Assembly: GCA_040235515.1 (NCBI GenBank)
Contig: JBECKX010000063.1
Coordinates: 1 to 40,983 of the forward strand
Source: Candidatus Zixiibacteriota bacterium
Lineage (GTDB): Bacteria > Zixibacteria > MSB-5A5 > CAIYYT01
Reading direction: 5' to 3'
Length of the DNA stretch: 40,983 bases
The translations under genes and the position numbers were made by a program. Position 1 is the stretch's first letter, and each line of letters starts with the position of its first letter. The notes under the pieces were generated by a model. The model did not search any database. It saw only the letters and a program-made list of their open reading frames with translations, and had not been told where the DNA came from. This document shows, one piece after another, positions 11,774 to 28,517 of the stretch.

Positions 11774-12088
11774 CTACCGATCTCGATTTGAGGGGTTGTA
11801 GGCGAATTCCTTCATGCTCATCGATTCAGGCACGGGGTAGACACCGGCTCCCTGGCAGAGCGGACAGGGGTTCTTATCTTCGAGCCGCACGTTGATGTTG
11901 CCGGTGCCCTGACAGGCAGTGCAGTCATTGCCGGCGGCAGTAAACCCGCGTCCGTTGCAGTAAGTGCAGAGATGCGAGTGGTTTGGTGTCAGGCATCGAT
12001 TGTCGACCCAGCCGCGCCCGCCACACTCGGGGCAAGTTTTGGGATTTCCTTCAGGGTCTGGCGTTGGCCAGTCTTCGCTTTCCGACAT
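11774..12088 (-). CDS. Small DnaJ-type zinc-finger protein (four CxxCxGxG-like motifs)
   Basis: CPECGGRG...CTYCNGRG...CTACQGTG...CPLCQGAG. Good SD (gtGAGGAagcATG). Overlaps the 3' end of the upstream endopeptidase gene by about 37 nt, so it is co-transcribed with the hydrogenase genes. Confidence 0.6.
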   Translation of the reverse strand: MSESEDWPTPDPEGNPKTCPECGGRGWVDNRCLTPNHSHLCTYCNGRGFTAAGNDCTACQGTGNINVRLEDKNPCPLCQGAGVYPVPESMSMKEFAYNPSNRDR

Positions 12089-12569
12089 GCTTCCTCACTT
12101 CCAATTGAGTTCTTATCCAATCATCGATTCGCTTGAGCGCAGCCGGAACTGCCGCGGCCACTTGAGGTGTAAGGGTTTCGGAGAGGGTTTCGATATCCCC
12201 TGCTTCGATGGCGAGCACGTCGATCTGCTCACAGATATTCATCCCCAGTTGTTTGCCGAGTTCCACGGCGACAGGCAGACTGATTTGATGGCTGGTGGTC
12301 AAATTTTTCGACGGCGTAAGAACGCCAAGCTCGAAGAAGTGAATCTCTCCCGGTACACCGTTACAGGTGCAGATTGAGTCGACGATCAGTATGCGTCGTC
12401 GATCCCGCATTAGCTCGAGCAGACGAAATCCCGCCAGCGCGGCAAACGCGATTTCCAGTTCGTCGAGGTTGCCCCAGCGTTGCCGCAGGTGGTCGGCAAT
12501 GACGACTCCAACGCGGTCATCGGTAAGCACCTCGTTTCCGAGGCAGAGAACAAGGACCGGGGCGATCAC
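12051..12569 (-). CDS. NiFe-hydrogenase maturation endopeptidase (HycI/HoxM/FrhD family)
   Basis: MIAPVLVLCLGNEVLTDDRVGVVIADHL...ILIVDSI matches the family N-terminus and metal-binding D/H residues. Lies 18 nt downstream of the large-subunit gene. Confidence 0.8.
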   Translation of the reverse strand: MIAPVLVLCLGNEVLTDDRVGVVIADHLRQRWGNLDELEIAFAALAGFRLLELMRDRRRILIVDSICTCNGVPGEIHFFELGVLTPSKNLTTSHQISLPVAVELGKQLGMNICEQIDVLAIEAGDIETLSETLTPQVAAAVPAALKRIDDWIRTQLEVRKHVGKRRLANARP

Positions 12570-12587
12570 AGGTTCGGTTCTCCCGTT

Positions 12588-14072
12588 CTAGCGATTGCGG
12601 TTTACGGTTTTGACGATCTCTCCAGTGTCGGCATCATGGATAATCAATTCCAGCGGCATACCACCTGGGAGCGTGTGCGTGGCACAGCCAAAGCACGGGT
12701 CGTATGCGCGGAACGCCATTTCGATCCGGTTCAGAACGCCGTCGGTGATCTCGGAACCTTTCGTGATCAATCCTTCGGCGGCCTTTTTGATCGACATCGT
12801 AATCGGAGCGTTGTTGTTGGTTGTCCCTACGATGAGGTTTGCTTCAGTCACGATTCCATTTTGATCGGTCTTATAGTGATGCGTCAGTGTGCCACGTGGT
12901 GCCTCCACGATGCCGACACCTTCTCCCACAATGCCGTCGGGCGGATTCAGGATTTCCTCGGAGGTTAGCTCATCATCCTGCGCCTGTTGGCAGGTGGCCT
13001 CGCAGGCAAACATCAATTCGACCACGCGTGCCCAGTGTGTGGCAAGCGTGGAGTGGACCGGGGTTTGGCCGGTTCGGTCACCAGTGAGTGTCTCGTAGAA
13101 ACGTTCGTATTCGGCCTGCGCCAGCGGCGTAGCCATACCATCAGAGACGTTTAAGCGTGAGAGTGGAGAGGCTTTGTATACGCCTGAATCGACACCATCG
13201 ACGAACCCTTTCCAACCAACTTTTTTCAGGAAAGGATACTTGAGATAGGAATAGGGTTCAACGTGCTCGGCCACATAGTCAAGATAGTCCTTCGGCTCAT
13301 AGAGAGCGTGCTCCTTACCATTCGGGTCGGTGACCCGCACGCGTCCATCATAGAAAGTCACTTTGTTGTTCTCATCTACCAGCCCCATGTTATAGGTTCG
13401 GTGCGCATAGGTGTCTGACAGGATAAGATCGACGTATGCCTGGTTGGCCAGGACGATGTCATTCAGCACCTGGATTGTGAACTGACCGAACTCCACCATC
13501 TCCCTGCCGATCTGGATCATTTCCTCCTGCTCCGCCTTACTGATCCGCTTGGTCAGGCCGCCGGGAACCGAGGTTACCGGGTGCACTTTTTTGCCGCCGA
13601 TGATCTCGATTATCCGTTGTCCGCGTGCGCGCTGTGCGATCACTTTCTTGCCTGCATCGACACCAACTTTAGCGATGACGCCCAGGATATTGCGCTCCGC
13701 CTTGGGGGCATCGGGACCGCAGACAAAATCGGGACCACCCAATGCGAAGAAGTGCGTGGTGTGATCGCCCGCATAGAAGGCGTTGTACATCAGCTCGCGC
13801 AGTTTGCGTGCGGCGGAAGGAATGGTAACGCCATAGACCGCATCAGCGGCCTTGGCCGATGCCATATGGTGCGCATCAGGGCAGACGCCGCAGATACGTG
13901 TCGTGATGCGCGCGAGTTCCTCCACAGGTCTTCCCTGACAGAACTTCTCGAAGCCACGCAGTTCGGGGATCTGGAAGTAACAGTTGGCCAGCGTGCCATC
14001 ATCCTCCACAAAGAGGTGAATCTTGCCATGACCCTCGAGTCGGGTGATTGGATCTATGACTACGCTCTTCAT
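12588..14072 (-). CDS. mvhA: NiFe hydrogenase large subunit, MvhA-like (group 3 type)
   Basis: N-terminal RICGVCPDAHH (RxCGxCxxxH) and C-terminal DPCFGCATH (DPCxxCxxH) Ni-Fe ligand motifs, followed by a 28-aa C-terminal extension, the substrate of the endopeptidase. SD GAGGAGGA. 4-nt overlap with the small-subunit gene. Confidence 0.9.
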   Translation of the reverse strand: MKSVVIDPITRLEGHGKIHLFVEDDGTLANCYFQIPELRGFEKFCQGRPVEELARITTRICGVCPDAHHMASAKAADAVYGVTIPSAARKLRELMYNAFYAGDHTTHFFALGGPDFVCGPDAPKAERNILGVIAKVGVDAGKKVIAQRARGQRIIEIIGGKKVHPVTSVPGGLTKRISKAEQEEMIQIGREMVEFGQFTIQVLNDIVLANQAYVDLILSDTYAHRTYNMGLVDENNKVTFYDGRVRVTDPNGKEHALYEPKDYLDYVAEHVEPYSYLKYPFLKKVGWKGFVDGVDSGVYKASPLSRLNVSDGMATPLAQAEYERFYETLTGDRTGQTPVHSTLATHWARVVELMFACEATCQQAQDDELTSEEILNPPDGIVGEGVGIVEAPRGTLTHHYKTDQNGIVTEANLIVGTTNNNAPITMSIKKAAEGLITKGSEITDGVLNRIEMAFRAYDPCFGCATHTLPGGMPLELIIHDADTGEIVKTVNRNR

Positions 14073-15040
14073 CGGTGAGTCCTCCTCAACATTGAGTCAG
14101 CGAGGCTGAAGCGGTAGAAGGTGCCGGTCGGATCGGGGATGCGGCTGATGATCGCCGCGATCTCGCCGGGGTCGGATGAGTCGATGACGCTCGCGAGGGC
14201 CGAGACCATCTTGGCGCCCTGATCACGTACGTTTGAAGGCAGGCCATAGCAGCCGCGACAGGGGATTCCAGCGCTGACGCACTTCGCGCCACAGCCGGCG
14301 CGGGTAGCGGGACCGAGGCATACGAGCCCCTGTTCCATCAGGCAGATATCCGGGTCGGTGACCTGCTGAAAGGGTCGTTTGAAAGACTTGATCTTTTTGA
14401 CATCCTTCTTTCGTTCGCATTCGTCGCAGCAGGTTTTCTCAGTTGCGCCCAGCACCGTACCCTTCGGTGGCAACGGCTTTCCATTCTTGAGGATATCCAC
14501 CACTGCGTCGATTACCGCGGCGATCTGGTTTGATTGCGGTGGGCATCCCGGAACGATGTAGTCGACGTCAACCACCTGCGGCAGGGTGCGCACGGTGTTC
14601 CAGAACTCGGGAATCGTAATGGTTCCCTCTTCCACTTCCACGCTTGTTTGCGGACGCAGGCCGTTGCCGCCGGCGAGCGAGGGGGACTGCGAGTAGACAT
14701 AGTCGAGGATTGACTCTTTGTCATAGAGATTCGCCAGCGCGGGGATGCAGCCCTCCGAGGCACAACTACCGAAGGCCACAAGCACCACCGATTTCTGTCG
14801 CAGCAGTTGAGCGAGTTCGTAGTTTTCGCTGGTGCGAATGGCGCCATTGAAGAGGGTCAGGGTAATTGAGTTATCTTCCATCGCACGGACATCATCATAC
14901 TTGACATCCATCGCACAGGGCCAGAAGACGACATCGAAGAAGTCGGCGACTTCCAGTATCTTGGTTTCGATGTCAAGAATTGCGATATCGCAACCTCCGC
15001 ACGATGCCGCCCAGTAGACCGCGAGTTTAGGCTTCGACAT
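14069..15040 (-). CDS. mvhG: NiFe hydrogenase small subunit, MvhG-like
   Basis: MSKPKLAVYWAASCGGCDIAILD... with the proximal-cluster Cys pattern and later GCPP. Start chosen at the internal ATG with SD GGGAGG (track start 15067). Confidence 0.85.
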   Translation of the reverse strand: MSKPKLAVYWAASCGGCDIAILDIETKILEVADFFDVVFWPCAMDVKYDDVRAMEDNSITLTLFNGAIRTSENYELAQLLRQKSVVLVAFGSCASEGCIPALANLYDKESILDYVYSQSPSLAGGNGLRPQTSVEVEEGTITIPEFWNTVRTLPQVVDVDYIVPGCPPQSNQIAAVIDAVVDILKNGKPLPPKGTVLGATEKTCCDECERKKDVKKIKSFKRPFQQVTDPDICLMEQGLVCLGPATRAGCGAKCVSAGIPCRGCYGLPSNVRDQGAKMVSALASVIDSSDPGEIAAIISRIPDPTGTFYRFSLADSMLRRTHR

Positions 15041-15503
15041 GGTGTACCTCCCTTGCTTCCGGCTCAAACTTGTAGTCGCGCAATTGCAGGGGGCCCAGCG
15101 CTCGAATCTGTTCGGTAAACTCCGTTACCACCTCCTGGAAGCGGGCACCCTCGGATGCCGACACCCACTCGAGGCGAACGCGTTTGGGATCGATGCCGAA
15201 GTCGGCTACGATTTTCTGGGTCAGAGGCATTCTGCGCATACACTTGTAGTTACCCTCGATGTAATGGCAATCCCCCGGGTGGCAACCACAGACCAGGACG
15301 CCGTCGGCGCCTTTGCTGAAGGCATCCAGGATAAACCCGGGGTCGACCCGTCCGGAGCACATCACCCTGATCGCCATCATGTTCGGGGGGTATTGCAGTC
15401 TGGCCGTTCCTGCAAGATCGGCGCCCGTGTAGGAACACCAGTTGCAGAGAAAGCCAATGATCTTGGGCTCGAATTTCGATTCGGATTTTGCTTCTCCGCT
15501 CAT
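15027..15503 (-). CDS. mvhD: MvhD-like (methyl-viologen-reducing hydrogenase delta) [2Fe-2S] subunit
   Basis: IGFLCNWCSYTGADLAG...IRVMCSGRVDPGFILDAF..GADGVLVCGCHPGDCHY is the MvhD/FlpD signature. Start overlaps the stop of the upstream gene (ATGA). Confidence 0.85.
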   Translation of the reverse strand: MSGEAKSESKFEPKIIGFLCNWCSYTGADLAGTARLQYPPNMMAIRVMCSGRVDPGFILDAFSKGADGVLVCGCHPGDCHYIEGNYKCMRRMPLTQKIVADFGIDPKRVRLEWVSASEGARFQEVVTEFTEQIRALGPLQLRDYKFEPEAREVHHVEA

Positions 15504-17281
15504 GCCAGCATTCCCTCGATTTGAGTGTAGATTTGTTCGTCGGTAAAATGCCTACCGGTGATAGCACCCGCAGGACATGCGGCAACACAGGTGCCACAAG
15601 CTTTGCAGAGTGCCGAATTGACGACGCTGATGCACTTTTCATCATTGAATTCGATTGCATGGTAGGGACAGAGATCATTGCAGATACGACAGCCCGAGCA
15701 GTACTCCTCCTGGATCTCGGCGTAGGTTGCATCCATCATAATTTCACCCTTGCAGAGCAACTTCATCGCCTGAGCAGCGGCAGCGCCACCCTGTGCGACG
15801 GTGTCGGGAATATCCTTTGCGCCCTGGCAGGTACCGGCAAGGAATACTCCTTCGGTGGCGGTTTGAACCGGCCCCAATTTGGGGTGTTGTTCGATGAACC
15901 AGCCATCGGCGCCGGTGGAGATATTGAGCTTTCGCGCCATCTCTTTGGCGTCCGCCCTCGCCTCCAGAGCTGTACAGAGCACGACCATATCCACCGGGAC
16001 TTCGCGGTAACGGCCGATCAGCGTATCCTCGCATTTGATGATCAAATGCCCCTCGTGCTTCTTCTTGTTGCTTGCGGGGACGACTTCGGCGCCTTTCCCG
16101 CGGATGACGTTGCCGCCCTCATCCAGAATCCGCTGGTAGAATTCTTCATACCCTTTGCCGAAGGAGCGCATATCGATGTAGAACTGGTAGACATCCGCTC
16201 CGGTTTTCTCTTTGATAAGATGCGCAAACTTCAACGCATACATGCAACAGACGCGGCTGCAATACTTGTGATGGTCGTCATCGCGACTGCCGACGCAGTG
16301 GAGGATGCCGATGCGTCCGGGAGTCTCACCATTTTCCATCAGAATCTTGCCACCGGTGGAGCCTGCGGCATTGTTCATTCGCTCGAACTCGATCGATGAG
16401 ATCACGTTGGGGAGTGCACCGTAGCCGTATTGTTTGAGCGGAGTTGGGTCGAAGTCAGCAAATCCGGTAGCCATGACAATCGCGCCGACCTCGAACTCCT
16501 CGGTGCTATCCTTCTGTTCGTAGTCGATACACTCCTTTGGGCAGACTTCGGCACAAATCCCGCAGTTGTCGGTCTGGAAATGGATACAGTGCTCGGTATT
16601 GATGTAAGGCACGTTTGGTACGGCCTGGCGGAATGGCATTGTGATCGCCGAGTTCGGACCGAGCTGCAGTTCGCGCAGGTTCACCTTCTTGCCGTCCTGA
16701 TCTTCCAGTCGAATGTGGCCTGTCGGACAGACGGAGGCGCAGGAACCGCACAGAATACAGTCGTCCGAAACCTCGTGAAATGGTGTCGTGACATTGCGCG
16801 CCCCGCCGCGGCTGGCGAATGTGAGAGCACTGGCACCAACGATTTCTTCACAAACCCGGACGCACAATCCGCACAGAATGCAGGAATCCTCTCCGGTTCC
16901 CCAGCGCGGTTCTTCGATACCAAGTTTGCCGGCAAGGTTCCGGAGGACCGGCAGCTCGGCGCAGCGACTCATCAGCAATTCGAGATTCGTGCGGCGAGCG
17001 TTCAAGACACGCGGTGTATCGGTGAGAATCTGCAGACCATCCCAGGCGGGATAGTTGCACGAAGTTACCACCTTCGACCACCCCTTACCGTCGCGAGCTT
17101 CTACCACGCAAACTCTGCAGGCGGCATAGGGGGTGGTGAAGGGAAAGTAGCAGAGAGTTGGAATCTCTATACCGAGAGCTTGAGCAGCCTGCAAGACATA
17201 GGAGCCATCCTCTACTTCGATTTTCTGACCATCGATCTCAATGGTCACGAGAGCTTGTTTATCGCCGTTTTGACTCTTCAT
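15500..17281 (-). CDS. Fusion protein: NuoG/FdhA-type N-terminal 2Fe-2S plus 4Fe-4S ferredoxin module fused to the C-terminal half of HdrA
   Basis: N-terminus VTIEIDGQKIEVEDGSYVLQAAQALGIEIPTLCY...CRVCVV (NuoG-like 2Fe-2S). Several CxxCxxCxxxCP motifs follow, then HdrA-specific ...HCVGSRDDDHHKYCSRVCCMYALKFAHL... and a C-terminal 2x[4Fe-4S] (CSGCRICNDLCP, CKACGTCVAACP). SD AGGAGGAG. Confidence 0.8.
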   Translation of the reverse strand: MKSQNGDKQALVTIEIDGQKIEVEDGSYVLQAAQALGIEIPTLCYFPFTTPYAACRVCVVEARDGKGWSKVVTSCNYPAWDGLQILTDTPRVLNARRTNLELLMSRCAELPVLRNLAGKLGIEEPRWGTGEDSCILCGLCVRVCEEIVGASALTFASRGGARNVTTPFHEVSDDCILCGSCASVCPTGHIRLEDQDGKKVNLRELQLGPNSAITMPFRQAVPNVPYINTEHCIHFQTDNCGICAEVCPKECIDYEQKDSTEEFEVGAIVMATGFADFDPTPLKQYGYGALPNVISSIEFERMNNAAGSTGGKILMENGETPGRIGILHCVGSRDDDHHKYCSRVCCMYALKFAHLIKEKTGADVYQFYIDMRSFGKGYEEFYQRILDEGGNVIRGKGAEVVPASNKKKHEGHLIIKCEDTLIGRYREVPVDMVVLCTALEARADAKEMARKLNISTGADGWFIEQHPKLGPVQTATEGVFLAGTCQGAKDIPDTVAQGGAAAAQAMKLLCKGEIMMDATYAEIQEEYCSGCRICNDLCPYHAIEFNDEKCISVVNSALCKACGTCVAACPAGAITGRHFTDEQIYTQIEGMLA

Positions 17282-17289
17282 GACTCCTC

Positions 17290-19305
17290 CTAGACCGCCG
17301 CCGGGGTTTTCTTACCGGCGCCTGATTGCCACAACTTGCGTGCCTTCTCCTGTAGTGCATCACCGGAGCCGCGCTTGACCCGCTTGATCGAGTCGAAGCG
17401 ACAGATCTGGAAACAGGCGCCGCACTGGATGCAGTCATCCTGCTTGATATAGTGCAGCTGCTTCGGTTCACCGATGATAGCGTTCGTGGGGCACGGTTTG
17501 ACACAGGCGTGGCAGCCGGTGCACGACTCATCGATTGCGTGAGAGACCAATTCCTTGCACACCCCGGCGGGACAGGTTTTGTCCACGACGTGGGCGATAT
17601 ATTCCTGTCTGAAGTAGCGAATCGTCGACAGCACCGGATTGGGTGCGCTCCCACCCAGCTGACAGAGGCTGGTATCGATGATCCCCTGCGACAACAGTTC
17701 GAGTTGTTCGATGTCGGCCAGGGTACCGTGGCCTGCAGAAATCTTGTTGAGGATTTCGAGCATAACCGCAATTCCCTCGCGACACGGGATGCACTTGCCA
17801 CAGCTTTCCTCCTGCAGGAAGCTGAGGAAGTAGCGCGCGACATCGACCATGCAGGAATCTTCATCCATGACGATCATGCCGCCTGACCCCATCATCGAGC
17901 CCGCCCTCGTGAGTTCATCGAAATCGACGGGCAGGTCAAGCAGGCTGCGGGCTTCTTCCTCCTCGCGGATATCCCCGTGCGCGACCAGTGAATCGTGGAT
18001 GTCGCGCTGACTGGTTTCGACGATCAGCGTACCGCCGGAGGGTCCGCCGGTCTGGACCGCTTTAAACCGCTTGTTTCCCGGGACGCCACCACCGATGTCA
18101 TAGAGGATTTCGCGCAGTGTAATTCCCATCGGTACTTCCACCAGGCCGGTGTTGTTTATCTTTCCGGTCAGCGCAAAGACCTTCGTACCCTTTGAGTGTT
18201 CCGTCCCGATCGAAGCAAACCAGTCGGCCCCGTGCTCGATGATCAGCGGGACATTCGCCCAGGTCTCGACATTATTGAGGTTCGAAGGTTTGTCCCAGAG
18301 CCCCTGCTCCACTGTGTGAATATACTTGGCGCGCGGCTCTCCCACTTTGCCCTCGAGTGACGCCATAAGTGCCGTGGACTCACCGCAGACGAAGGCACCG
18401 CCGCCACGCGAGATTTCGATATCAAATGAAAACCCGCTGCCGAGGATGTTATCACCCAGGAGCCCACACTCGTAACAATCAGCGAGTGCCTTGTTGAGGG
18501 TCTTGACGGCGAGAGGGTATTCGTTGCGCACGTAGACAAAGCCCTCGCTTCCGCCAATGGCATAGGCGCCGATGATCATGCCCTCTATGACCGCGTGCGG
18601 ATTGCCCTCGAGCAGGGAACGATCCATGAACGCGCCGGGATCGCCCTCGTCGGCGTTGCAGATGATGTATTTCGGAGTGCCGGGGGCTTTGCGACAACTG
18701 GCCCATTTTCTCCCCGTGAGGAATCCACCACCTCCTCGTCCCCGCAGGCCGGAACGCTTGACCTCCTCGATGATCTGTTCCGGTTGCATCGTGGTCAGCG
18801 CCTTGACGACAGATTCGTAGCCGCCGAGGCGTATGTAATCATCGATCGAGAAGGGGTCCATGTAACCGTTCTTCTCAAAGATAAGGCGCTTCTGTTTCTT
18901 GTAGAATGGTATCTCCACTTCCTGCTGGATGATCTCAGCAGTAGCAGGATCACGATAAAGGAGTTTCTTCACCGTGTGTCCGCCAATGATTGTCTGATCC
19001 CAGATCAGTTTGACATCCGCCGGCTTTACCCGCTGGTAGAAGATTCCACTCGGACGGATGACCACCAGTGGGCCTCGTTCGCAGAAGCCATGACAGCCGG
19101 TGGCTTTGAGTTCGACTTCCTTCGCCATGCCTTCTTTCGCGATCACTTCCTTGAACGCACGGTAAACCGGTTTACAGCCGCAGGCGCGGCAGCCGGTGCC
19201 GGCACAAACTGTGATGGTTGTTTTGTTGGGATCGAAGTTCGTTGTCAGCAGATTCCGCCAAGCCTCAAGCTCCCGGGGAGAGCCGATTCTGAGTGACTTG
19301 TTCAT
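17290..19305 (-). CDS. NuoF-like NADH-binding flavoprotein of the HydB/HndC type, with an extra N-terminal thioredoxin-like 2Fe-2S domain and a C-terminal 2x[4Fe-4S] ferredoxin
   Basis: N-terminus CAGTGCRACGC...CHGFCERGPLVVI. Core GGYESVVKAL...RGRGGGGFLTGRKW (FMN/NADH site) and ESCGKCIPCREG (cluster N3 motif). C-terminus CTGCHACVKPCP and CIQCGACFQICR. Confidence 0.9.
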   Translation of the reverse strand: MNKSLRIGSPRELEAWRNLLTTNFDPNKTTITVCAGTGCRACGCKPVYRAFKEVIAKEGMAKEVELKATGCHGFCERGPLVVIRPSGIFYQRVKPADVKLIWDQTIIGGHTVKKLLYRDPATAEIIQQEVEIPFYKKQKRLIFEKNGYMDPFSIDDYIRLGGYESVVKALTTMQPEQIIEEVKRSGLRGRGGGGFLTGRKWASCRKAPGTPKYIICNADEGDPGAFMDRSLLEGNPHAVIEGMIIGAYAIGGSEGFVYVRNEYPLAVKTLNKALADCYECGLLGDNILGSGFSFDIEISRGGGAFVCGESTALMASLEGKVGEPRAKYIHTVEQGLWDKPSNLNNVETWANVPLIIEHGADWFASIGTEHSKGTKVFALTGKINNTGLVEVPMGITLREILYDIGGGVPGNKRFKAVQTGGPSGGTLIVETSQRDIHDSLVAHGDIREEEEARSLLDLPVDFDELTRAGSMMGSGGMIVMDEDSCMVDVARYFLSFLQEESCGKCIPCREGIAVMLEILNKISAGHGTLADIEQLELLSQGIIDTSLCQLGGSAPNPVLSTIRYFRQEYIAHVVDKTCPAGVCKELVSHAIDESCTGCHACVKPCPTNAIIGEPKQLHYIKQDDCIQCGACFQICRFDSIKRVKRGSGDALQEKARKLWQSGAGKKTPAAV

Positions 19306-20818: not shown

Positions 20819-21696
20819 ACGTTAGCCACCTCCCCCCGCAGTTTGGCGGAGCGAACCGGAATCAGCAGTCTATCCATTCCCAGTTCCTTTTCCTTTAATC
20901 CCAATGCCAGCCCTACCAGGTGTGTGAAGTAGAGGATCGGGATGTTAAACTTCTGCCCGTAGCGGGCATTGATCTTGTCCTGGTAGCCTTCGAGGTTGAT
21001 CTGGCAGAGAGGACATGCGGTCGCGATCATTTCGGCGTCGTTGTCAGCAGCTGCCTGGAGCAGACCGTTGCAGAGCCTGAGCCCGATCTCCTCATCTGTG
21101 GTCATGAGCATCCCACCACAGCAGCGCACTTTCGGCGGATAATGCACAACCTCAGCTCCGAGAGCTTCAAACAGTTGATCCATGGTTACCGGCTCATCGA
21201 CATCATCGAAGTAACCGTGAGGTCTGACGATCTGGCAGCCATAGTAAGGCGCGACTTTGATACCGGTCAGCGGATTGGTTACGGCTTCCTTTAATGCCTC
21301 AAGACCGAAGTCATTGACGATAATGTCGAGAGGATGTCGCACAGTGACCATGTGATCGTAGCGGAGTTCGGCGGCTGAGAGGGCGGCGTTTATCTTCTCC
21401 CGCTCTTGCGGGTCCCAGGCGATATGACGGTTGGTCTTTTTCAGGATTGTGTAACAACTGCTGCAAGGTGCGCAGATATCCATTCCCATATCCTGCGCCA
21501 GCGCCAGGTTCCGGGCGCTGATGGCGTAGCCGACAATTTTCTTTGCCGACATGTACATCGTCGCGCCGCAGCAATTCCAGTCTTCGATTTCGGTGAGTCC
21601 CAGCCCTAGCTGTTTGAAGACGGCACGTACCGAGATATCATAGGGGCTGCCGGTGTGCTCGAGGCTGCATCCGGGATAGTAGGCGTAGTCAGTCAT
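20815..21696 (-). CDS. hdrB: HdrB-like subunit (two CCG domains)
   Basis: MTDYAYYPGCSLEHTG...WNCCGAT... and a second YYGCQIVRPH...CCGG (CCG cysteine-rich domains). TAATG overlap with hdrC. Confidence 0.9.
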   Translation of the reverse strand: MTDYAYYPGCSLEHTGSPYDISVRAVFKQLGLGLTEIEDWNCCGATMYMSAKKIVGYAISARNLALAQDMGMDICAPCSSCYTILKKTNRHIAWDPQEREKINAALSAAELRYDHMVTVRHPLDIIVNDFGLEALKEAVTNPLTGIKVAPYYGCQIVRPHGYFDDVDEPVTMDQLFEALGAEVVHYPPKVRCCGGMLMTTDEEIGLRLCNGLLQAAADNDAEMIATACPLCQINLEGYQDKINARYGQKFNIPILYFTHLVGLALGLKEKELGMDRLLIPVRSAKLRGEVANV

Positions 21697-22283
21697 TAGT
21701 GCTCTCCAAACTCATTAGCTTTTTTGATTATCGCCTGGACCTGCCTGACGCGTTTGATGCGCTGCGGCAGCAACCCCATGCGTTCGCGCCGCATCAGCTT
21801 CAAGCCGTAACCGGCGTTCTTGAAGAGCTTGGTAAACCCGGAGCGCATGAAGTACTTCACCCCGAGTCCAAGCTCGTAGTTGCGGCCATACTTGTAGATG
21901 TTATCAAGGAACGTCGAGGAGAGCCGATGCACGGGGAAGTTGCGCGGATAGATCCTGCGCTGCATCGCGATTCGTTTGAGGGCATACATCGTATCGGTTA
22001 CCCTGATGTTTTGCGGACAGCGTACCGTGCAGGAGTAGCAGGAGGCACACACCCAGATTGAGCGACTTCTCAGTATCTCCTCGATCCGCCCTGCCCTGAA
22101 CATCGCCACCGTCTGGCGCGGGGTCAGATCCATGAAGTCGGACACCGGACAGGTACCAGTGCAGGTGCCGCACTGGAGGCATTTTTTGATCCTGTAACCG
22201 TCGGGGAATGAGTCTACCTGCTCCCAGAAGGCTTCTTGCAGTTCAGCCTCGGAGGGAGAAACCATAGTCAGGGTATCTGCCAT
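21696..22283 (-). CDS. hdrC: HdrC-like 2x[4Fe-4S] subunit
   Basis: CLQCGTCTGTCP and CASCYSCTVRCP. Confidence 0.85.
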   Translation of the reverse strand: MADTLTMVSPSEAELQEAFWEQVDSFPDGYRIKKCLQCGTCTGTCPVSDFMDLTPRQTVAMFRAGRIEEILRSRSIWVCASCYSCTVRCPQNIRVTDTMYALKRIAMQRRIYPRNFPVHRLSSTFLDNIYKYGRNYELGLGVKYFMRSGFTKLFKNAGYGLKLMRRERMGLLPQRIKRVRQVQAIIKKANEFGEH

Positions 22284-22554
22284 TTTGCCCTCACAAGTCG
22301 TGGATTGGGTCTTTTTCGGGATTGGCTGCGACTCTTGAGAGACAACTGAGGGATGATTCCTCAGTGCCGCATGCCCGGATGTCGCAGCTTTTCAAAGAAG
22401 TTGTGCAACGGTGTCGTTGGATTTTCATTGAGAATATCGACACAAAATACCACTGTCAAGATATTTTTTTCACAAAGTCTATAGAAAATTGTGCAGAATC
22501 GCGCTATTGATGCTCTTTCAGTGCAGCATGTTATGACTATTGTGCTCCCTATTA

Positions 22555-22570
22555 TGTGATTTTATTCACA
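22555..22570. promoter_or_regulatory. Perfect CRP-family palindrome TGTGA-N6-TCACA in the only sizeable gap of the hyp-hdr-mvh block, about 270 nt upstream of hdrC
   Basis: tgtgattttattcaca is read directly; the surrounding region is AT-rich, promoter-like DNA. Confidence 0.45.
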
Positions 22571-22657
22571 ATAGTAATGAAAACTTATCATTTCACTCCA
22601 CTATTAGCGCGTTGTTTCGAAGTGAAGCGATTTGGGCGTTGGGATCGGAATGATGCC

Positions 22658-23722
22658 CTAACAGATGCGTGGGAGTTGTTCGCCGACAGGGAGATCGACG
22701 AAGCGTTCGGTTCCGAAACGAGTGCGCAAGGTCACAACAGCGCGGTCGCAACTCTCGACGCTGGCGAGGAGTGAGGCATTTTCCCCGAGCGGATGCCTGC
22801 GCATTTGTTCCAATGCGGTGTCGGCAAATTCGGGGGAGACAGCGACAACCATTACCCCTTCATTCGCGACGTGAAGCGGGTCAAATCCAAGCAATTCGCA
22901 GGCGGCAGCCACCGGAGGTGCGATCGGGATCGCTGCTTCAGATATCCGAATCGCAACCTGGGAGGAGGCGGCGAATTCATTCAGAATAGCGGCGATGCCG
23001 CCACGCGTGGCATCTCGCATGGCGTGGATCCCGGCACCGTAGGTCGTCACCAGTGAATTGACGAGCGGGAGGAGTGATGCGGTATCGGATGCGATCGGAG
23101 TTTGGAGCCCGAGGTCCTCGCGCTGGGCGATAATCGCGATGCCATGGCTGGCGATGTTACCACTCACAAGAATCTTGTCCCCTGCCCTGAGCCCCGCGGC
23201 GGAGAAGCAGTAATCATGTTCGATCAGGCCGATTCCCGCCGTGTTAATGAAAATCCTGTCAGCCTTCCCACGATCGACGACCTTCGTGTCCCCAGTGACT
23301 ATGACCACATTTGAGTTTGCGGCTGCGCGACTCATGCTGTGGATGATTCGTTCGAGATCAGAAACCGCCAGCCCCTCTTCAATGATCAAACCTGCGCTGA
23401 GGTATAGCGGCCGGGCACCGCACATACAGAGGTCGTTGATTGTACCGTTGACAGCCAGCTCACCGATATCGCCGCCGGGGAAGAAAATCGGATCGACGAC
23501 ATAGGAATCTGTGGTAAAGGCCAGTCGTGTACCGGCAAGCGTCAAGCGGGCTTGATCCTCCAGAGGTCGCAGCAATTCATTGTCAAAATACTTCAGAAAG
23601 AGTGATTGAATCAGCTCGCCGGTCAGCTTGCCGCCTGAGCCGTGCGCGAGTTGAATGGTTGCATGCCCCGACAATGGGGCGGGACAACTTAACTGGAAGC
23701 TCTTATTCTTCTCTTCACCCAT
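22658..23722 (-). CDS. hypE: HypE, hydrogenase maturation (AIR-synthase-like, carbamoyl dehydratase)
   Basis: Ends with the invariant ...LPRIC C-terminus; PurM-like body. Start taken at the internal ATG (MGEEKNK...), 8 nt into hypD. Confidence 0.9.
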
Positions 23723-24827
23723 TGAAGGCCCACTTCGGTTCCAAGAACTGTTTGTATTTGAAGTAGGCAGCGCACGCACCCTCCGATGATACCATCGTCG
23801 CACCAAGAGGGTGGGCGGGTGTACAACCGGCGCCAAAGGCAGGACAATCGCTTGGTTTTATGCGCCCCTGAAGAACCAGCCCGCTCAAGCAGTCGGCAGG
23901 CTCATCTACGGAGTTGCTGGAGAGCTCAAACTGCTTCTCGGCATCGAATTGCTCATACTCTGTGCGGATCCCAAGGCCGCTGTGAGGAATCTCACCCAAC
24001 CCTCGCCACCTGCGCGAGACCACCCGAAATACCTTCGTAACCGCTTCCTGCGCCGACCGATTCCCCTGACGAGTAACTACGCGGCTGTAACGATTATCAA
24101 CTGTCGCTTTCCCGGTTTCCAGCTGCTTCACTACAGCCAGAATCCCTGCCAGGAGATCGAGGGGTTCGAAGCCGGTAACAACTATCGGCACATTGTAGTG
24201 TGCGGCGATTGGCTCATACGATTCCCAGCCCATCACGGCGCAAACATGTCCAGCCGCGAGATACCCCTGAACACGGTTTGAATCCGAGCTAAGCAGGGCT
24301 GACATTGCCGGAGGCACAAGCACATGAGCCGGCAGCAGAGAGAAGTTCGTGATCCCTTCGCGCTGTGCCTGCAGGACTGCCATTGCAGTCGTTGGGGCGG
24401 TAGTCTCAAACCCCACTGAGAAGAAGACGACTTTCTGCTCCCGATTCTCACGGGCGATGCGGACGGCGTCGAGGGGAGAGAGGACGACTCGTATGTCTGC
24501 ACCTCTCGATTTTGCAGTTAGCAGATCGATCTCCGAACCAGGAACTCTGAGCATATCACCGAAGGAGGTGAATATGACGCCGGGAAGCGCCGCGATTGCG
24601 ATCGCTTTATCGATCATTTCGAGCGGTGTGACACAGACCGGGCATCCGGGACCATGCACGAGTTCGACGCTACCGGCCAGCAATTGATCGATACCGTTGC
24701 GTACGATCGAGTGGGTTTGACCACCACAGACTTCCATAATGACCCACTCCCTGGTCGCACTGCGGCGGATCTCATCCACCAGTGATTTTGCCAGTTCGGC
24801 ATCGCGGAACTCTTCCAGATACTTCAC
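23715..24827 (-). CDS. hypD: HypD, Fe-S scaffold for Fe(CN)2CO assembly
   Basis: [18 protein letters not shown] and FETTAP motifs. 370 aa. Confidence 0.9.
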
Positions 24828-24836
24828 GGCACAACC

Positions 24837-25082
24837 TTACTCTTCCTGCTCGCTCGTCGCCAACGCATACTCACGCCAGAGAGCCAGAGTCTCTTGTGCC
24901 TCGACCTCATCGAGCACGCTGATGGCAAAGCCTGCGTGCACGAGCAGGTATTGACCAGGCACTGCGTCGGGGAGATACTCAAGACACGCTTTCTGGATGC
25001 TGCCGGAGAAATCCACCCGACCCATCTTAAGCCCATGTTCTTCTACTATCTCTATCAGTTTTCCCGGTATTGCCAGGCACAT
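24837..25082 (-). CDS. hypC: HypC/HupF chaperone
   Basis: The conserved N-terminus MCLAIPGKLIEI (essential Cys2) begins at the internal ATG. SD GGAGGAG immediately upstream; the track ORF start (25106) adds 8 unlikely residues. Confidence 0.9.
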   Translation of the reverse strand: MCLAIPGKLIEIVEEHGLKMGRVDFSGSIQKACLEYLPDAVPGQYLLVHAGFAISVLDEVEAQETLALWREYALATSEQEE

Positions 25083-25098
25083 AGTCTCCTCCTTCGGG

Positions 25099-27417
25099 CT
25101 ACACACCCCGGGTCCGCGTTGTTTTGTTTGCGGCGATCAGTGCCTGACCCAATGCAAGTCCGCCATCATTTGTTGGCACTTCCGAATGCACCAGCACCTG
25201 ATAACCACGTGAGCGTAATTGAGCCAGCAGATGCTCGGTAAACAGTTCGTTCTGAAAGACACCGCCACTAAGCGCGATGCATCGTATGCCGGTCTTTTCG
25301 ACGGCCAGTTGTGCGACAGCGGCGAAGAGGTCAGCCAGTTGGAGGTGAAACCAGAATGCCAGCCGTTCTGCCGGAATACCGCTGAGCAGATGGTCCAGCA
25401 GTTCGCGGACGATTGGAATAAAGTCGATCTCCCCGGCGGTTGGAGTAGCGGACGTTGCTGCGGGGAGCGCACCACCCCCGTTGTTCCGAAACCGCAGTGC
25501 TGCCTGTTCCAGGTTGATAGCGGCCTGGGCTTCGAAGCTTGAGTGCAGACCAAATCCTAAGATAGCAGAGATGCCATCGAAGAGTCTGCCACAACTCGAA
25601 GTGAGTGGACGCGCACCGCGCCGCAAAAGGAATTGCTGTATAGTCCTCTTCTCTTCCGCCTTTATCGGCCCGAGCACATCCTGATGCAGAGAGTGGGCAT
25701 CCTCGACTCCTGCGGCTGAGAGGTAACTGATGACCATTTTCCAGGGGTGTTTGATTGCGGACTCGCCACCCGGCATCACGACAGGTTGCAACCAGGCGAA
25801 GCGCTCAAAGTCGCAAGTGTCACCGATCAGCACCTCACCGCCCCAGATCGTCGCATCGCTTCCGTACCCTGTCCCATCCAGAATAATACCCACCGCCGGA
25901 TGGTCGCAGTGATGCTCCGCCAGAACGGAGGCAAGGTGAGCATGATGGTGCTGCACCCGCATCACCGGAAGCACGGCCTGCGCCAGCGCCCAGCGCGTTG
26001 AGAGATAGTCGGGGTGCAAGTCGCAGGCGATCAGCTCCGGTTCAAACTGATGTGTCTTTCTCAGGTGCTCGATGGATTCTTCGAAGAACTGCAGCGCTTT
26101 CGGGTTGTCGAGGTCACCAATGTGTTGCGAGAAGAAGAAGCGATTTCCGCGCAGGTAGCCAATCGTGTTCTTCAGTTCGGCTCCACAGGCAAGAATAGAT
26201 TGTTGATGTTTGCGAATCAGGCGCACCGGCGAGGGAACGAAGCCACGCGCCCGACGCATGACTGATAGCCTCCCGGCGGTACTCATGACGACCGAATCAT
26301 CGCAGCGCTGCAGGATGTCGCGGTCATGGAGCAGGAACGCATCGGCAACATCACCCAGCCGGGAGATAGCCTCCTCGTTGCCGATCGCGATCGGCTCATC
26401 CGAGAGGTTTGCGCTGGTCATTACCAGGGCAATGAAATTGTCCTTAAGCAGCAGATGGTGAAGGGGCGTGTAGGGCAGCATCACTCCATAGCGAGTATTG
26501 TCAAATGCCACCGATTCAGCGATAACGGCATTGTCCTTTCGCCTGAGCAGCATGATCGGCGCGACGGGCGACAGTAACCACTTCAAATCGCCCTCTGACA
26601 CATCGCAAATCTGGTGCACCACCGACAGGTCGGCAACCATGATCGCCAGCGGCTTCTCCGCCCGCAGTTTGCGCTGTCGCAGGCGTAGTACGGCGGCGGC
26701 GTTGGTGGCATCAACTGCCAGGTGGAATCCACCGAGGCCGCGAATCGCCACGATCCGCCCAGCCCTCAGATAAGCGACAGTCTCAGCCAGCGGGTCGAGA
26801 TCAGGTTGAATCGCTCCATCGGTGTACCACGATAGCCGTGGTCCACACGCCGGACACGCCACCGGCTGCGCATGATAGCGGCGGTCCGCGACATTCTCAT
26901 ACTCGGCGCGGCAGATTTCGCACATCTGAAACGCGCTCATCGAAGTGTTCGAACGATCATACGGGACATTATCGACAATCGTGTAGCGTGGACCGCAATT
27001 CGTGCAGTTAGTGAAGGGGTAACGATAACGCCTGTCTGTCGGGTCGAACATCTCGCGCAGACAGTCGGCACAGACGGCGATATCTGCTGAGATCAACGTT
27101 GATACGGCACCGCTGCTGATGCTAGTTGTGATTGAGAAATCGGCATCACCCTTGAGTGGGAGCGAGGTGAGTGTGCTGGTATCGATTTTCGCTAGTGGAG
27201 GCAGTTCTGAGTGGAGCCGTCGACAAAACGACTCAATCTGCGGCACCGCGCCTTCCACCTCGATCAGGACACCTGCAGAGTTGTTGCAGACAAATCCGCT
27301 CAAGTGGAGTGAGGATGCCAACCGGTGAACGAAGGGTCGAAAGCCTACGCCCTGTACGACGCCATCGAGCACCAGCTGTCGCCGAACGCGCATTTCTTTG
27401 TCGTGGAGGGTCACCAT
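25099..27417 (-). CDS. hypF: HypF carbamoyltransferase
   Basis: Acylphosphatase domain VQGVGFRPFVHRLA, two Zn-finger CxxC pairs (CADCLREM...CTNCGPRYTI; CEICRAEY...CPACGPR), then YrdC-like and Kae1-like domains. 772 aa. Confidence 0.9.
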   Translation of the reverse strand: MVTLHDKEMRVRRQLVLDGVVQGVGFRPFVHRLASSLHLSGFVCNNSAGVLIEVEGAVPQIESFCRRLHSELPPLAKIDTSTLTSLPLKGDADFSITTSISSGAVSTLISADIAVCADCLREMFDPTDRRYRYPFTNCTNCGPRYTIVDNVPYDRSNTSMSAFQMCEICRAEYENVADRRYHAQPVACPACGPRLSWYTDGAIQPDLDPLAETVAYLRAGRIVAIRGLGGFHLAVDATNAAAVLRLRQRKLRAEKPLAIMVADLSVVHQICDVSEGDLKWLLSPVAPIMLLRRKDNAVIAESVAFDNTRYGVMLPYTPLHHLLLKDNFIALVMTSANLSDEPIAIGNEEAISRLGDVADAFLLHDRDILQRCDDSVVMSTAGRLSVMRRARGFVPSPVRLIRKHQQSILACGAELKNTIGYLRGNRFFFSQHIGDLDNPKALQFFEESIEHLRKTHQFEPELIACDLHPDYLSTRWALAQAVLPVMRVQHHHAHLASVLAEHHCDHPAVGIILDGTGYGSDATIWGGEVLIGDTCDFERFAWLQPVVMPGGESAIKHPWKMVISYLSAAGVEDAHSLHQDVLGPIKAEEKRTIQQFLLRRGARPLTSSCGRLFDGISAILGFGLHSSFEAQAAINLEQAALRFRNNGGGALPAATSATPTAGEIDFIPIVRELLDHLLSGIPAERLAFWFHLQLADLFAAVAQLAVEKTGIRCIALSGGVFQNELFTEHLLAQLRSRGYQVLVHSEVPTNDGGLALGQALIAANKTTRTRGV

Positions 27418-27438
27418 CAGAAATCAATCCCGGTTCGG

Positions 27439-28119
27439 CTAGCTGCCCAGCCGCTGCAGTTGCTTCTGCTCAACTGCGTTCCTGAGCCAGCCATACCAAT
27501 CCTCCAACCCGACGCCTGATCTGCAGGATAGCGTGAGGAAAGTCAGGTTTCCGTTAATCTGCCGAGCGTTCCTGACGGCGGTGTCGAGATCAAAGTCACA
27601 CAGTTCGAGCATATCGATTTTGTTGATAACCATGACGGATGAGCGTCGAAACATGCCGGGGTACTTGAGTGGCTTATCGTCCCCCTCGGTAGTACTCATC
27701 AAGACTACCTTGAGGTCCTCCCCGAGGTCATAGCTTGATGGACACACCAGGTTGCCGACATTCTCGATGAAGAGCAGTTCTATCTCTTCCAGATCGAGTT
27801 GATCTACAGATTTCGCTACCATCCTTGCATCGAGATGACACGCCCCTCCGGTCGTAATCGGTCGCACCATTCTGGCTCCCGCCCTGCGCAGTCGATCAGC
27901 GTCGTTCTCCGTCTGCACATCGCCGGCAATCATCGCCAGCTTGATTTCCTCTCCCAGCGCGCTGATGGTCCGTTCCAGCAGGCTGGTTTTGCCCGAACCG
28001 GGTGAACTGACCAGATTGATGCAAAAGATCCCCAAACGGGCAAAACGCTCCCGCAGGTCTGCGGCGAGGCGGTCGTTCTCTGACAGGACTTTTTCCGCAA
28101 CGGTCACTTTCCGAGTCAT
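27439..28119 (-). CDS. hypB: HypB Ni-binding GTPase
   Basis: P-loop SSPGSGKTSLLERTI and the CxxC...C region ahead of the G-domain. 4-nt overlap with hypA. Confidence 0.9.
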   Translation of the reverse strand: MTRKVTVAEKVLSENDRLAADLRERFARLGIFCINLVSSPGSGKTSLLERTISALGEEIKLAMIAGDVQTENDADRLRRAGARMVRPITTGGACHLDARMVAKSVDQLDLEEIELLFIENVGNLVCPSSYDLGEDLKVVLMSTTEGDDKPLKYPGMFRRSSVMVINKIDMLELCDFDLDTAVRNARQINGNLTFLTLSCRSGVGLEDWYGWLRNAVEQKQLQRLGS

Positions 28120-28517
28120 TTGGCCCTCGCCTTCTGTTCCGGGGGATTACATGTAGTGGTCCGGGTTGGATCGTCATCGATCTCAAGATACGCGATCTCC
28201 AGTTCATTGCCCGCGAGCAGCGTGACCGAGTAGCAGTTACATTCCGGGCACTGGAATAGAAAGCGCTCCGAGACGATGAACTCGATTGCACAGGAGTCAC
28301 AGCGGCATTTGATTGGGATAGATTCGATTCGCAGGGTGGTTTCCTCGAGCGGAGTTTCGCGCGCAGAGACTTCGAATCCGAACTGCAGCGCTTCAGGGAC
28401 GACATCAGTGAGCTCACCGATGCGCAGCACGACCGTCTGAACCTGCCCATAAGCATGTTCCTCGATTTGACGAAGAACATGTTCCATGATTGTCTGTGCG
28501 ATGGCAAGTTCATGCAT
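28116..28517 (-). CDS. hypA: HypA Ni metallochaperone
   Basis: Conserved MHE N-terminus (MHELAIAQTIMEHV) at an internal ATG with SD GAGGA. C-terminal Zn site CRCDSC...CPECNC. Confidence 0.9.
   Translation of the reverse strand: MHELAIAQTIMEHVLRQIEEHAYGQVQTVVLRIGELTDVVPEALQFGFEVSARETPLEETTLRIESIPIKCRCDSCAIEFIVSERFLFQCPECNCYSVTLLAGNELEIAYLEIDDDPTRTTTCNPPEQKARAK

Follow-up and report, generated by a model that had tools for sequence, protein, structure and literature searches.

Introduction

The MvhADG-HdrABC complex of methanogens (PDB 5ODC) is built from HdrC, HdrB, HdrA, MvhD, MvhG and MvhA, and the same subunits are encoded in the DNA analyzed here, a stretch of 40,983 nucleotides (nt) from a Candidatus Zixiibacteriota genome (assembly GCA_040235515.1, contig JBECKX010000063.1, positions 1-40,983), referred to below as the window. 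As in the methanogen complex, the CCG domains of the window HdrB are intact and the large hydrogenase subunit carries a C-terminal extension, and in the PDB the best match of that large subunit is MvhA of the methanogen complex, while HdrA of the same complex is the best match of the C-terminal half of a fusion protein described below. In structures of methanogen complexes, HdrA's inserted ferredoxin domain is assigned as the route by which low-potential electrons leave the bifurcating FAD (PMC9012536, PMC13518236). Publications on Zixibacteria and Ignavibacteria have described clusters of this kind as "MvhADG/HdrABC with its maturation system", leaving a NuoEF insertion unmentioned (PMC3903129, PMC7509429). 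An earlier reading of the window, made from its sequence alone and referred to below as the original prediction, called the redox genes an Hdr/Mvh/Nuo-like complex, a label that overlooks the central feature of the locus: HdrA is split, and a Bfu-type module is inserted at the split.

Three other described systems bear on this arrangement. In the Bfu family, NiFe-ABCSL of Acetomicrobium mobile (7T2R) and WorABCSL (9MQX) have the same BfuB architecture as the window and a NuoE-like BfuC (PMC9304861), and two publications attribute to the BfuBC core an NAD(H) site and a ferredoxin-binding domain (PMC9304861, PMC12318220). The operon of NiFe-ABCSL includes a [NiFe]-hydrogenase, as does the window, and WorA is devoid of the A3 cluster, just as the BfuA-like domain of the window is devoid of the His-ligated motif. 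The Bam(BC)DEFGHI complex ("Bam-Bfu", class II benzoyl-CoA reductase) likewise joins an HdrA-type module, an MvhD-like subunit and BfuABC (BamGHI), and is the only described complex found here that combines all three. The accessible text of the Bfu survey by Schut et al. (2022) proposes two bifurcation sites in series for Bam-Bfu, and names this combination of Bfu with HdrA but no Hdr-Mvh-Bfu type (PMC9304861). [quoted passage not shown]

Results

A Bfu-Type Module Interrupts HdrA

Compared with the NCBIfam HdrA2 model, which has 777 positions, every segment of HdrA is present in the window, spread over two genes instead of one polypeptide (Table 1), with MvhD covering model positions 641-774. 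The first gene, hdrA(N), encodes the N-terminal cluster domain, the first part of the FAD domain and Cys motif 1 of the inserted ferredoxin domain (CNSCGACYEACP). The second encodes a fusion protein, the C-terminal half of which (amino acids [aa] ~204-593) supplies Cys motif 2 of the inserted ferredoxin domain, the remainder of the FAD domain and the ferredoxin domain of the C-terminus, and aligns to residues 245-650 of methanogen HdrA (5odc_A, 360 bits). In an alignment with unsplit HdrA of bacteria, the Cys motifs of the inserted ferredoxin domain lie on either side of the break, which comes after motif 1 and an "LxLG" sequence. HdrA(N) terminates in ARYVDPTICNSCGACYEACP...LMLG, followed by a tail of ~55 aa, and the fusion protein resumes HdrA at LQLGPNSAITMPFRQAVP, its motif 2 reading C232-x7-C240-x2-C243-x3-C247. 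These four cysteines are invariant in all 15 of the fusion proteins compared, and motif 1 is kept at the HdrA(N) C-terminus in 23 of 25 split loci, the other two looking frameshifted. A sequencing or assembly artefact, or a pseudogene, was considered as the origin of the split and rejected, given that intact motifs are conserved across dozens of genomes.

The N-terminal part of the fusion protein (aa 10-198) carries one [2Fe-2S] and two [4Fe-4S] sites (Pfam Fer2_4 and Fer4; two CxxCxxCxxxC motifs) and corresponds to residues 5-191 of WorA, the short BfuA of WorABCSL (9mqx_A, E=1.5e-35). Residues 11-106 also match the HoxU and FeFe-A6 models, and the N-termini of NuoG and of [FeFe]-hydrogenases are similar as well; no His-ligated A3 cluster motif was seen in the sequence of this N-terminal domain. 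Ahead of motif 2, and 41 residues past the first BfuA motif, the fusion protein bears a further motif, CILCGSCASVCPTGHI, the "CPTG" signature of which we take to be BfuA-type from BfuA and NuoG sequences. This motif most likely belongs to BfuA clusters A2/A4 and, because it is assigned to BfuA, motif 1 of HdrA(N) would be left to pair in trans with motif 2.

Two genes lie between the HdrA halves. BfuC gives HoxE and NuoE scores (150 and 131 bits) below both cut-offs, and its gene overlaps that of BfuB by 4 nt. BfuB combines 2Fe-2S_thioredx (aa 27-102), Complex1_51K, SLBB, NADH_4Fe-4S and two Fer4 domains (aa 593-643), and its alignment to subunit B of the bifurcating NiFe-ABCSL/HydABCSL enzyme spans the full length (7t2r_B, 761 bits), with WorB (9mqx_B) scoring 744, Thermus NuoF (2fug_1) 376 and HoxF (5xf9_A) 231 bits. 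With a score to 7t2r_B far above those to NuoF and HoxF, and with extra Fe-S domains at its ends (a thioredoxin-like [2Fe-2S] domain at the N-terminus, a 2x[4Fe-4S] domain at the C-terminus), the NuoF-like protein belongs to the Bfu type. The locus displays the Bfu architecture, with the extra Fe-S domains on BfuB, an adjacent BfuC and a BfuA-type domain that is fused rather than a separate subunit.

These scores also bear on the notion that the locus encodes a Hox-type (group 3d) NAD-reducing bidirectional hydrogenase, HoxEFUYH, with recruited Hdr subunits. Partial NCBIfam matches would suit it, at 150 bits for HoxE and 118 bits for HoxU, as would the precomputed Pfam "HoxH" label on the large subunits of relatives. 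Both matches, however, fall below the respective cut-offs of 224 and 333 bits, the NuoF-like protein scores 761 bits to BfuB but 231 bits to HoxF, and the large subunit is nearer MvhA (5odc_F, 394.6 bits) than NiFe-ABCSL (7t2r_D, 374 bits) or HoxH (5xf9_D, 311 bits). With MvhD present and a small subunit that is nearest VhuG, a Hox-type enzyme is scarcely credible here.

Hydrogenase and Heterodisulfide Reductase-Like Subunits

The remaining redox subunits retain the ligands of their families. HdrB has both C...CC...CxxC cysteine sets, the ligands of the non-cubane clusters, and MvhA has the nickel-binding motifs RICGVCPDAHH and DPCFGCATH. The original prediction had noted a 28-aa extension after the second of these, matched to a co-encoded protease, and the translation indeed continues for exactly 28 residues (TLPGG...NRNR). 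The gene for MvhD lies between those for the HdrA(C) fusion and MvhG, with hdrC and hdrB in the same cluster, a linkage characteristic of group 3c; by profile score, as opposed to phylogeny, the best NCBIfam matches of the large and small subunits are VhuA and VhuG, both below their cut-offs. The likely start of mvhG is the ATG at 15040, with a TTG at 15067; relatives align from residue 9-10. Because most redox subunits score below equivalog cut-offs trained on methanogens, family names do not fix the substrate, and especially not the disulfide.

Conservation and Variants of the Split Locus

A scan of GTDB species representatives recovered 595 relatives, and the window proteins were mapped onto the best 80 loci (designated L001 onward); organism labels of the metagenome-assembled genomes (MAGs) are used as deposited, some of them being doubtful. 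The fusion protein is represented by more than 120 cluster representatives (63-74% identity, ~585 aa). The split order hdrC-hdrB-hdrA(N)-nuoE-nuoF-fusion-mvhD-mvhG-mvhA(-protease) is found in ~35 of the 80 loci, under the bacterial labels Ignavibacteria, Zixibacteria/GN15, Calditrichaeota, Armatimonadetes, Acidobacteriota/Bryobacterales, Aminicenantes, Chloroflexi, Planctomycetaceae and Verrucomicrobiota, and in two archaeal MAGs (Thermoplasmata and an unclassified archaeon). The remaining loci have the canonical unsplit hdrCBA-mvhDGA-protease order, for example in Dehalococcoidia and Krumholzibacteriota, with the Hdr and Mvh genes following one another as they do in the window. In a neighbor-joining tree of the HdrA C-terminal half, itself crude, the archaeal split loci L034 and L043 nest among bacterial sequences, which suggests transfer of the cluster between domains.

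Gene fusions tie the modules to one another. The BfuA domain is covalently joined to HdrA(C) and, in four loci (L023, L024, L026 and L034), an in-frame fusion joins HdrA(N) to the NuoE-like BfuC; by Rosetta-stone reasoning, the Bfu module and both HdrA halves would hence form one assembly. These fusions weigh against the proposal that the operon came by chance to hold two enzymes, MvhADG-HdrABC of the classical kind and, apart from it, an NADH dehydrogenase or diaphorase of the NuoEF type. In favor of that proposal, stand-alone relatives of each module exist, and unsplit hdrCBA-mvhDGA clusters occur in Dehalococcoidia and Krumholzibacteriota. Yet HdrA would not function as two unrelated fragments, and both the insertion point and the gene order are constant across loci of many phylum labels, so that two independent enzymes are very unlikely.

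Several variants of the split locus were observed. In L011 (3437-7346), L008, L012-L015, L017-L019, L027, L070 and L080, ~4.5 kb separate hdrA(N) from nuoE and code for three proteins, one resembling [FeFe]-hydrogenases (Fe_hyd_lg_C and a putative Fe-S domain), one with a PHP domain and one of the HATPase_c type, which together look like a sensory and regulatory set travelling with the Bfu module. In L022, L025, L026 and L042 (Desulfobacterales and "delta proteobacterium" MAGs), the cassette hdrA(N)-nuoE-nuoF-fusion-mvhD is followed by more hdrA-like genes and hdrCB; because mvhG and mvhA are missing from these loci, the cassette is reused with non-hydrogenase partners. Furthermore, the Bacteroidota locus L060 (7763-11173) encodes a single 1136-aa HdrA in which an NfnB/GltD-like Fer4_20+Pyr_redox_2 module occupies aa 294-689, at the site where the window HdrA is split, within an otherwise syntenic hdrCB-hdrA-mvhDGA-hyp cluster. 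Judged by spacing, L065, L066, L075 and L076 have the same NfnB/GltD-type arrangement.

Organization, Promoter and Origin of the Block

Positions 11774-28517 hold 17 intact genes, all on the minus strand, as established from the map of open reading frames (ORFs) and from profile searches. The content and order given in the original prediction for this 16.7-kb block are borne out by both: hypA-hypB-hypF-hypC-hypD-hypE, then the nine redox genes, the protease and the CxxCxGxG protein, with the tiny or negative spacers it described (-38 to +21 nt) everywhere except between hypE and hdrC. The AT-rich gap reported at this junction exists (GC 42.5%, against 55.8% for the window) and measures 374 nt, not 375. 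HypA, HypB, HypC, HypD, HypE and HypF each exceed their NCBIfam equivalog or subfamily cut-off across the full profile length, and for this reason no pseudogenization of the hyp genes, the event that would have spoken against a working maturation set, is visible. The endopeptidase was less aptly named HycI-type: it passes the general superfamily model TIGR00072, but scores 32 bits against a cut-off of 119 in the HycI equivalog, and the HybD and FrhD equivalogs are likewise not reached. An ORF at 24824-25036 was rejected as hypC, since it overlaps the MCLAIPG ORF and has no family match; the DUF1801 gene at 11223-11717 was likewise rejected as a member of the unit, not being kept beside the cluster in relatives.

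Of all sigma-70-like sites in the 18 kb covered by the scan (11000-29000), the top one lies in the gap, with 10 of 12 consensus positions. Its -35 and -10 elements and its upstream A-tract (20 of 21 positions identical) are kept upstream of hdrC in L002, a Zixibacteria MAG, the shared pattern being TTGTGAAAAAAAT[A/C]TCTTGAC ... GATA[T/A]TCT; in an alignment of hdrC upstream regions, conservation was found with L002 only, and none with L001, L004 or L009. Because the best sigma-70-like site lies in the gap and is conserved in L002 despite an unrelated upstream gene, the redox cluster most likely has its own promoter. That upstream gene is a divergent TetR gene in L002, while in L001 it encodes GTP cyclohydrolase I and in L086, a closed 4.3-Mb contig with no hyp genes within 5 kb, a secreted peptidase. 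In relatives with linked hyp genes, these sit downstream, in different orders. Proteins of the closest relatives are 70-86% identical to those of the window, with lower values for the protease, at 46-47%, and for the zinc-finger protein, at 64-66%.

A putative 142-nt 5' leader of hdrC (22284-22425, minus strand) folds at -38.6 kcal/mol (z = -2.1 against shuffled sequences) and holds a long imperfect hairpin, GCUGCGAC...GUCGCAGC; this leader segment is missing from L002. A search of the whole window against Rfam at the gathering threshold returned no match, so that the gap holds no riboswitch or leader of a known family.

The original prediction regarded the block as a single, self-contained island to build and mature a cytoplasmic bifurcating hydrogenase, proposed a test for horizontal transfer, and suggested regulated expression from the position beside a sigma-54 activator and two Ser/Thr kinases. 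The association itself stands, in that the hyp set and a dedicated endopeptidase share location and orientation with a cytoplasmic hydrogenase of the Hdr/Mvh/Nuo-like kind, although such co-location of hyp genes with a hydrogenase and its maturation protease is ordinary. An island is not supported: block and flanks agree in tetranucleotide composition (r = 0.916, against 0.902 between left and right flank), in GC (56.3 and 55.5%) and in GC3, and searches for tRNA genes at an island boundary, for bounding repeats and for mobility genes among the flanking ORFs all came back empty, the only repeat families being codons of Cys motifs and short chance matches. Nor does the single joined unit fare better, given the conserved sigma-70-like promoter within the gap and the closest relatives L001, L002 and L086, in which no hyp genes lie upstream of the redox cluster. 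In its favor, all 17 genes are co-oriented and closely spaced, and no terminator is predicted behind hypE.

Regulation by the neighboring genes is supported neither by the layout nor by a motif scan, although neither refutes it. A gene for a serine/threonine kinase with tetratricopeptide repeats (STK-TPR) does adjoin the block, divergent from hypA, but the sigma-54 activator invoked in the original prediction and one of its two kinases are one and the same 1441-aa protein (1087-5412, plus strand), encoded 6.4 kb away on the opposite strand with five ORFs in between, so that the STK-TPR kinase is the sole kinase adjacent to the block. A scan for the sigma-54 motif (TGGCAC-N5-TTGCW, up to 2 mismatches) gave 19 matches against 20.8 expected, none of them in the gap or upstream of hypA. 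The presence of a PAS-sigma-54 activator, divergently encoded beside hypB in the relatives L081 and L082, counts in favor of such regulation. On balance, one self-contained operon or island, possibly acquired horizontally and controlled by the neighboring activator and Ser/Thr kinases, is an unlikely account of the block.

In L081 (6432-7037 and 8341-9744), and likewise in L082, an IS110-family transposase gene stands between the zinc-finger gene and hypA-hypB, this activator gene being the divergent neighbor of hypB. The 1441-aa protein of the window combines protein kinase-like, TPR, GAF, sigma-54-interaction AAA+ and Fis-type helix-turn-helix regions, an unusual fusion of a kinase-like domain with an enhancer-binding protein. 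Elsewhere in the window, three ORFs had no Pfam match (E<=1e-4): 32633-35587 (minus strand, 984 aa), 8880-9389 (plus strand, 169 aa) and 37484-38311 (minus strand, 275 aa). A dockerin type I domain is present in the 278-aa protein encoded at 7849-8685.

A Zinc-Finger Protein Follows the Protease

The last gene of the block overlaps the protease gene by 38 nt and encodes a small protein of a narrow family (63 homologues, at least 54% identity, ~102 aa) in which the four CxxCxGxG motifs and a ninth Cys are conserved. It follows the protease gene in every context examined, which in the closest clade means each locus with sequence available downstream, often overlapping it and frequently with hypA-hypB next, and lies directly behind it in L001, L002, L009 and L081-L085; the copy in L086 is 30% identical. 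Because its position after the protease of the same cluster type is constant, the protein can be tied to hydrogenase maturation or assembly, and is probably a co-translated, clade-specific helper in one of these processes. An AlphaFold2 model from a 19-sequence alignment reached a mean predicted local distance difference test score (pLDDT) of 57.6, too low for a fold search. Several members of the family (P0122-P0185) are called "RecJ-like exonuclease" by the JGI, a name that looks like a misannotation, the members being zinc fingers of ~100 aa always found beside the hydrogenase protease.

Table 1. Coordinates of the genes and sites of the block and of the adjacent kinase gene, with profile scores and the cut-offs of the respective NCBIfam models.
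Feature	Position	Strand	Description
CxxCxGxG protein	11774-12088	-	104 aa, four CxxCxGxG (DnaJ-type zinc finger); Pfam DnaJ_CXXCXGXG 33.5 bits
Protease	12051-12569	-	Hydrogenase maturation endopeptidase; TIGR00072 93.2 bits, cut-off 47.45
mvhA	12588-14072	-	[NiFe] large subunit; VhuA 393 bits, below cut-off 800
mvhG	14069-15040	-	[NiFe] small subunit; VhuG 219.9 bits, below cut-off 450
mvhD	15027-15503	-	[2Fe-2S] connector; Pfam FlpD 191 bits
BfuA-like::HdrA(C) fusion	15500-17281	-	593 aa; residues 204-591 = HdrA2 262-640, 437.6 bits
bfuB	17290-19305	-	NuoF-like FMN/NAD(H) subunit
bfuC	19302-19856	-	NuoE/HoxE-like, thioredoxin-like [2Fe-2S]; Pfam 2Fe-2S_thioredx 173 bits
hdrA N-half	19856-20818	-	320 aa; HdrA2 positions 1-256, 387.6 bits
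hdrB-like	20815-21696	-	Pfam CCG in two stretches; TIGR03288 198 bits, below cut-off 345
hdrC-like	21696-22283	-	2x[4Fe-4S]; Pfam Fer4_8, Fer4_17; TIGR03290 77 bits, below cut-off 160
Intergenic gap	22284-22657	-	374 nt, AT-rich, between hypE and hdrC; holds the candidate promoter and a structured putative 5' leader
Sigma-70-like promoter	22431-22475	-	TTGTGAAAAAAATATC upstream tract, TTGACA, 17-nt spacer, TATTCT (TTGACA to TATTCT, 22459-22431)
hypE	22658-23722	-	C-terminus PRIC; TIGR02124 450.9 bits, cut-off 251.6
hypD	23715-24827	-	Pfam HypD 503 bits; TIGR00075 478.6 bits, cut-off 192.8
hypC	24837-25082	-	Chaperone, N-terminus MCLAIPG; TIGR00074 73.8 bits, cut-off 48
hypF	25099-27417	-	Carbamoyltransferase; five of five Pfam domains; TIGR00143 812.5 bits, cut-off 466.1
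hypB	27439-28119	-	Nickel-insertion GTPase; TIGR00073 276.5 bits, cut-off 121.2; 4-nt overlap with hypA
hypA	28116-28517	-	Nickel metallochaperone; Pfam HypA 108 bits; TIGR00100 92.7 bits, cut-off 88.1
hypA alternative start	28532	-	GTG
STK-TPR kinase gene	28798-31629	divergent from hypA	Sole kinase gene adjacent to the block

Discussion

Taken together, the block is probably made up of two adjacent, co-directional and native chromosomal transcription units, the second of which most likely encodes one cytoplasmic multi-module Mvh-Hdr-Bfu complex. The first unit, hypABFCDE, would be an intact set for assembly of the [NiFe] center, and the second would run hdrC-hdrB-hdrA(N)-bfuC-bfuB-[bfuA::hdrA(C)]-mvhD-mvhG-mvhA-protease-zinc finger from a sigma-70-type promoter of its own within the 374-nt gap. 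The predicted complex would unite a [NiFe]-hydrogenase of the Mvh type (group 3c-like), a flavin bifurcation module of the HdrABC type and, for NAD(H) and ferredoxin, a module of the Bfu type (HydBC/NuoEF-like), and the protease would cut the 28-aa tail of MvhA once the Hyp proteins have inserted nickel.

In the proposed mechanism, the HdrA halves re-associate and the inserted ferredoxin domain is rebuilt in trans, motif 1 coming from one polypeptide and motif 2 from the other. In the H2-oxidizing direction, H2 would be oxidized at MvhA and electrons would travel through MvhG and MvhD to the FAD of HdrA, from which the high-potential branch would lead to disulfide reduction at HdrB. The low-potential branch would pass from the inserted domain directly to BfuA and from there enter the BfuBC core, with its FMN, its NAD(H) site and its ferredoxin-binding 2x[4Fe-4S] domain, a route that we infer because BfuA sits exactly at the low-potential exit of HdrA. 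The Bfu module would then reduce NAD+ and/or ferredoxin, the reverse direction being possible as well. The architecture, domains, conserved ligands and fusions on which this scheme is built are observed, whereas the trans-assembly, the electron path, its direction and the stoichiometry are inferred. Overall, an H2-oxidizing role, with a disulfide reduced at HdrB and NAD+ or ferredoxin at the Bfu module, is favored.

Several considerations weigh against this scheme. Each step of electron flow derives from homology, and the sequence would also admit another pairing of the Cys motifs than the one adopted here. HdrB, HdrC, MvhA and MvhG all score below the NCBIfam equivalog cut-offs, so that their family names denote architecture and not substrate. 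NAD+ and disulfide are both more positive than H2, and a thermodynamic need for two bifurcating modules is not apparent. The neighbor-joining tree of the HdrA C-terminal half interleaves split and unsplit forms, so that origins of the split cannot be counted in a tree that is crude and in which some of the "unsplit" labels stem from contig truncation. Lastly, with no terminator predicted after hypE, transcription of the hyp genes might read through into the second unit.

The direction of the enzyme can be construed differently, with the same complex evolving H2. The BfuBC core would then confurcate fermentative NADH and reduced ferredoxin through BfuA and HdrA to MvhAGD, leaving HdrBC an auxiliary or regulatory role. 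Similarity of the Bfu module is highest to reversible hydrogenases dependent on NADH and ferredoxin, and the variant loci keep the sensory set of [FeFe]-hydrogenase-like, PHP and HATPase proteins. Sets of this kind accompany fermentative HydABC operons. Re-oxidation of NADH and ferredoxin by a "group 3c" enzyme has, moreover, been proposed in metagenome papers on Ignavibacteria (PMC7509429). However, the group 3c enzymes that have been characterized biochemically all oxidize H2 in cells (PMC11216029), retention of both HdrB CCG cysteine sets argues for a functional disulfide-reducing branch, and a simple confurcating hydrogenase such as NiFe-ABCSL works without Hdr. An H2-evolving complex is a serious but less likely option, and H2 oxidation remains the preferred reading. 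As to the disulfide, a related Zixibacteria genome, RBG-1, has been reported to be devoid of coenzyme M and coenzyme B biosynthesis (PMC3903129).

The split-HdrA Mvh/Hdr hydrogenase is widespread, and it has apparently gone undescribed so far: no description of an HdrA split by NuoEF or Bfu genes in an Mvh cluster was found in the searchable literature, although an earlier mention elsewhere, for instance in reviews of HdrA modules, is possible. Studies of MAGs routinely label such clusters as an ordinary "MvhADG/HdrABC group 3c hydrogenase", and this label has been used to infer H2-driven reduction of ferredoxin and heterodisulfide in Zixibacteria, Ignavibacteria and other, mostly uncultured, lineages. 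Should the Bfu module belong to the enzyme, the electron carriers inferred so far would have to be changed: NAD(H) would count among the substrates, and the energy balance of these anaerobes, which are abundant in sediments and the subsurface, would call for revision. As a tentative extension, the loci might represent an unrecognized and widespread "Mvh-Hdr-Bfu" class, in which two bifurcating devices of different mechanism, the HdrA FAD and the FMN/Fe-S site of Bfu, are hard-wired in series, the ferredoxin domain is built in trans from two polypeptides, and one enzyme couples H2/H+, thiol/disulfide, NAD+/NADH and ferredoxin. With the Bfu module as part of the enzyme, this would be a second case in nature in which a single machine bifurcates in both the HdrA and the Bfu manner, the first being the Bam complex, itself not yet resolved. 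Furthermore, since the junction is defined at a single Fe-S domain, the low-potential electron exit of HdrA, a long-standing question, becomes directly testable by structure determination.

The comparison with described systems delineates what is particular to the window. In MvhADG-HdrABC, HdrA is a single chain, whereas in the window it consists of two polypeptides with a three-part Bfu module inserted at the split, and its low-potential branch probably leads by way of FMN to NAD(H) and ferredoxin, not to ferredoxin in free form or to polyferredoxin; the window sequences, moreover, score below all methanogen equivalog cut-offs. With respect to NiFe-ABCSL and WorABCSL, BfuA is not a separate subunit here but a 200-aa domain fused to half of HdrA, and the hydrogenase, unlike that of NiFe-ABCSL, would connect through MvhD and HdrA instead of directly to BfuA. 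The Bam complex has a tungsten benzoyl-CoA reductase as catalytic partner in place of a hydrogenase, and an HdrD-like subunit instead of HdrBC. We know of no report of its HdrA homologue, BamE, being split by Bfu genes or fused to them. The ANME-1 HdrA paralogues, finally, accommodate their NfnB/GltD-like domain within one polypeptide, whereas the window has received two whole genes and a fused domain, with the hdrA gene itself divided. The ANME-1 insertion is paralleled instead by the bacterial HdrA of L060 with its NfnB/GltD-like module.

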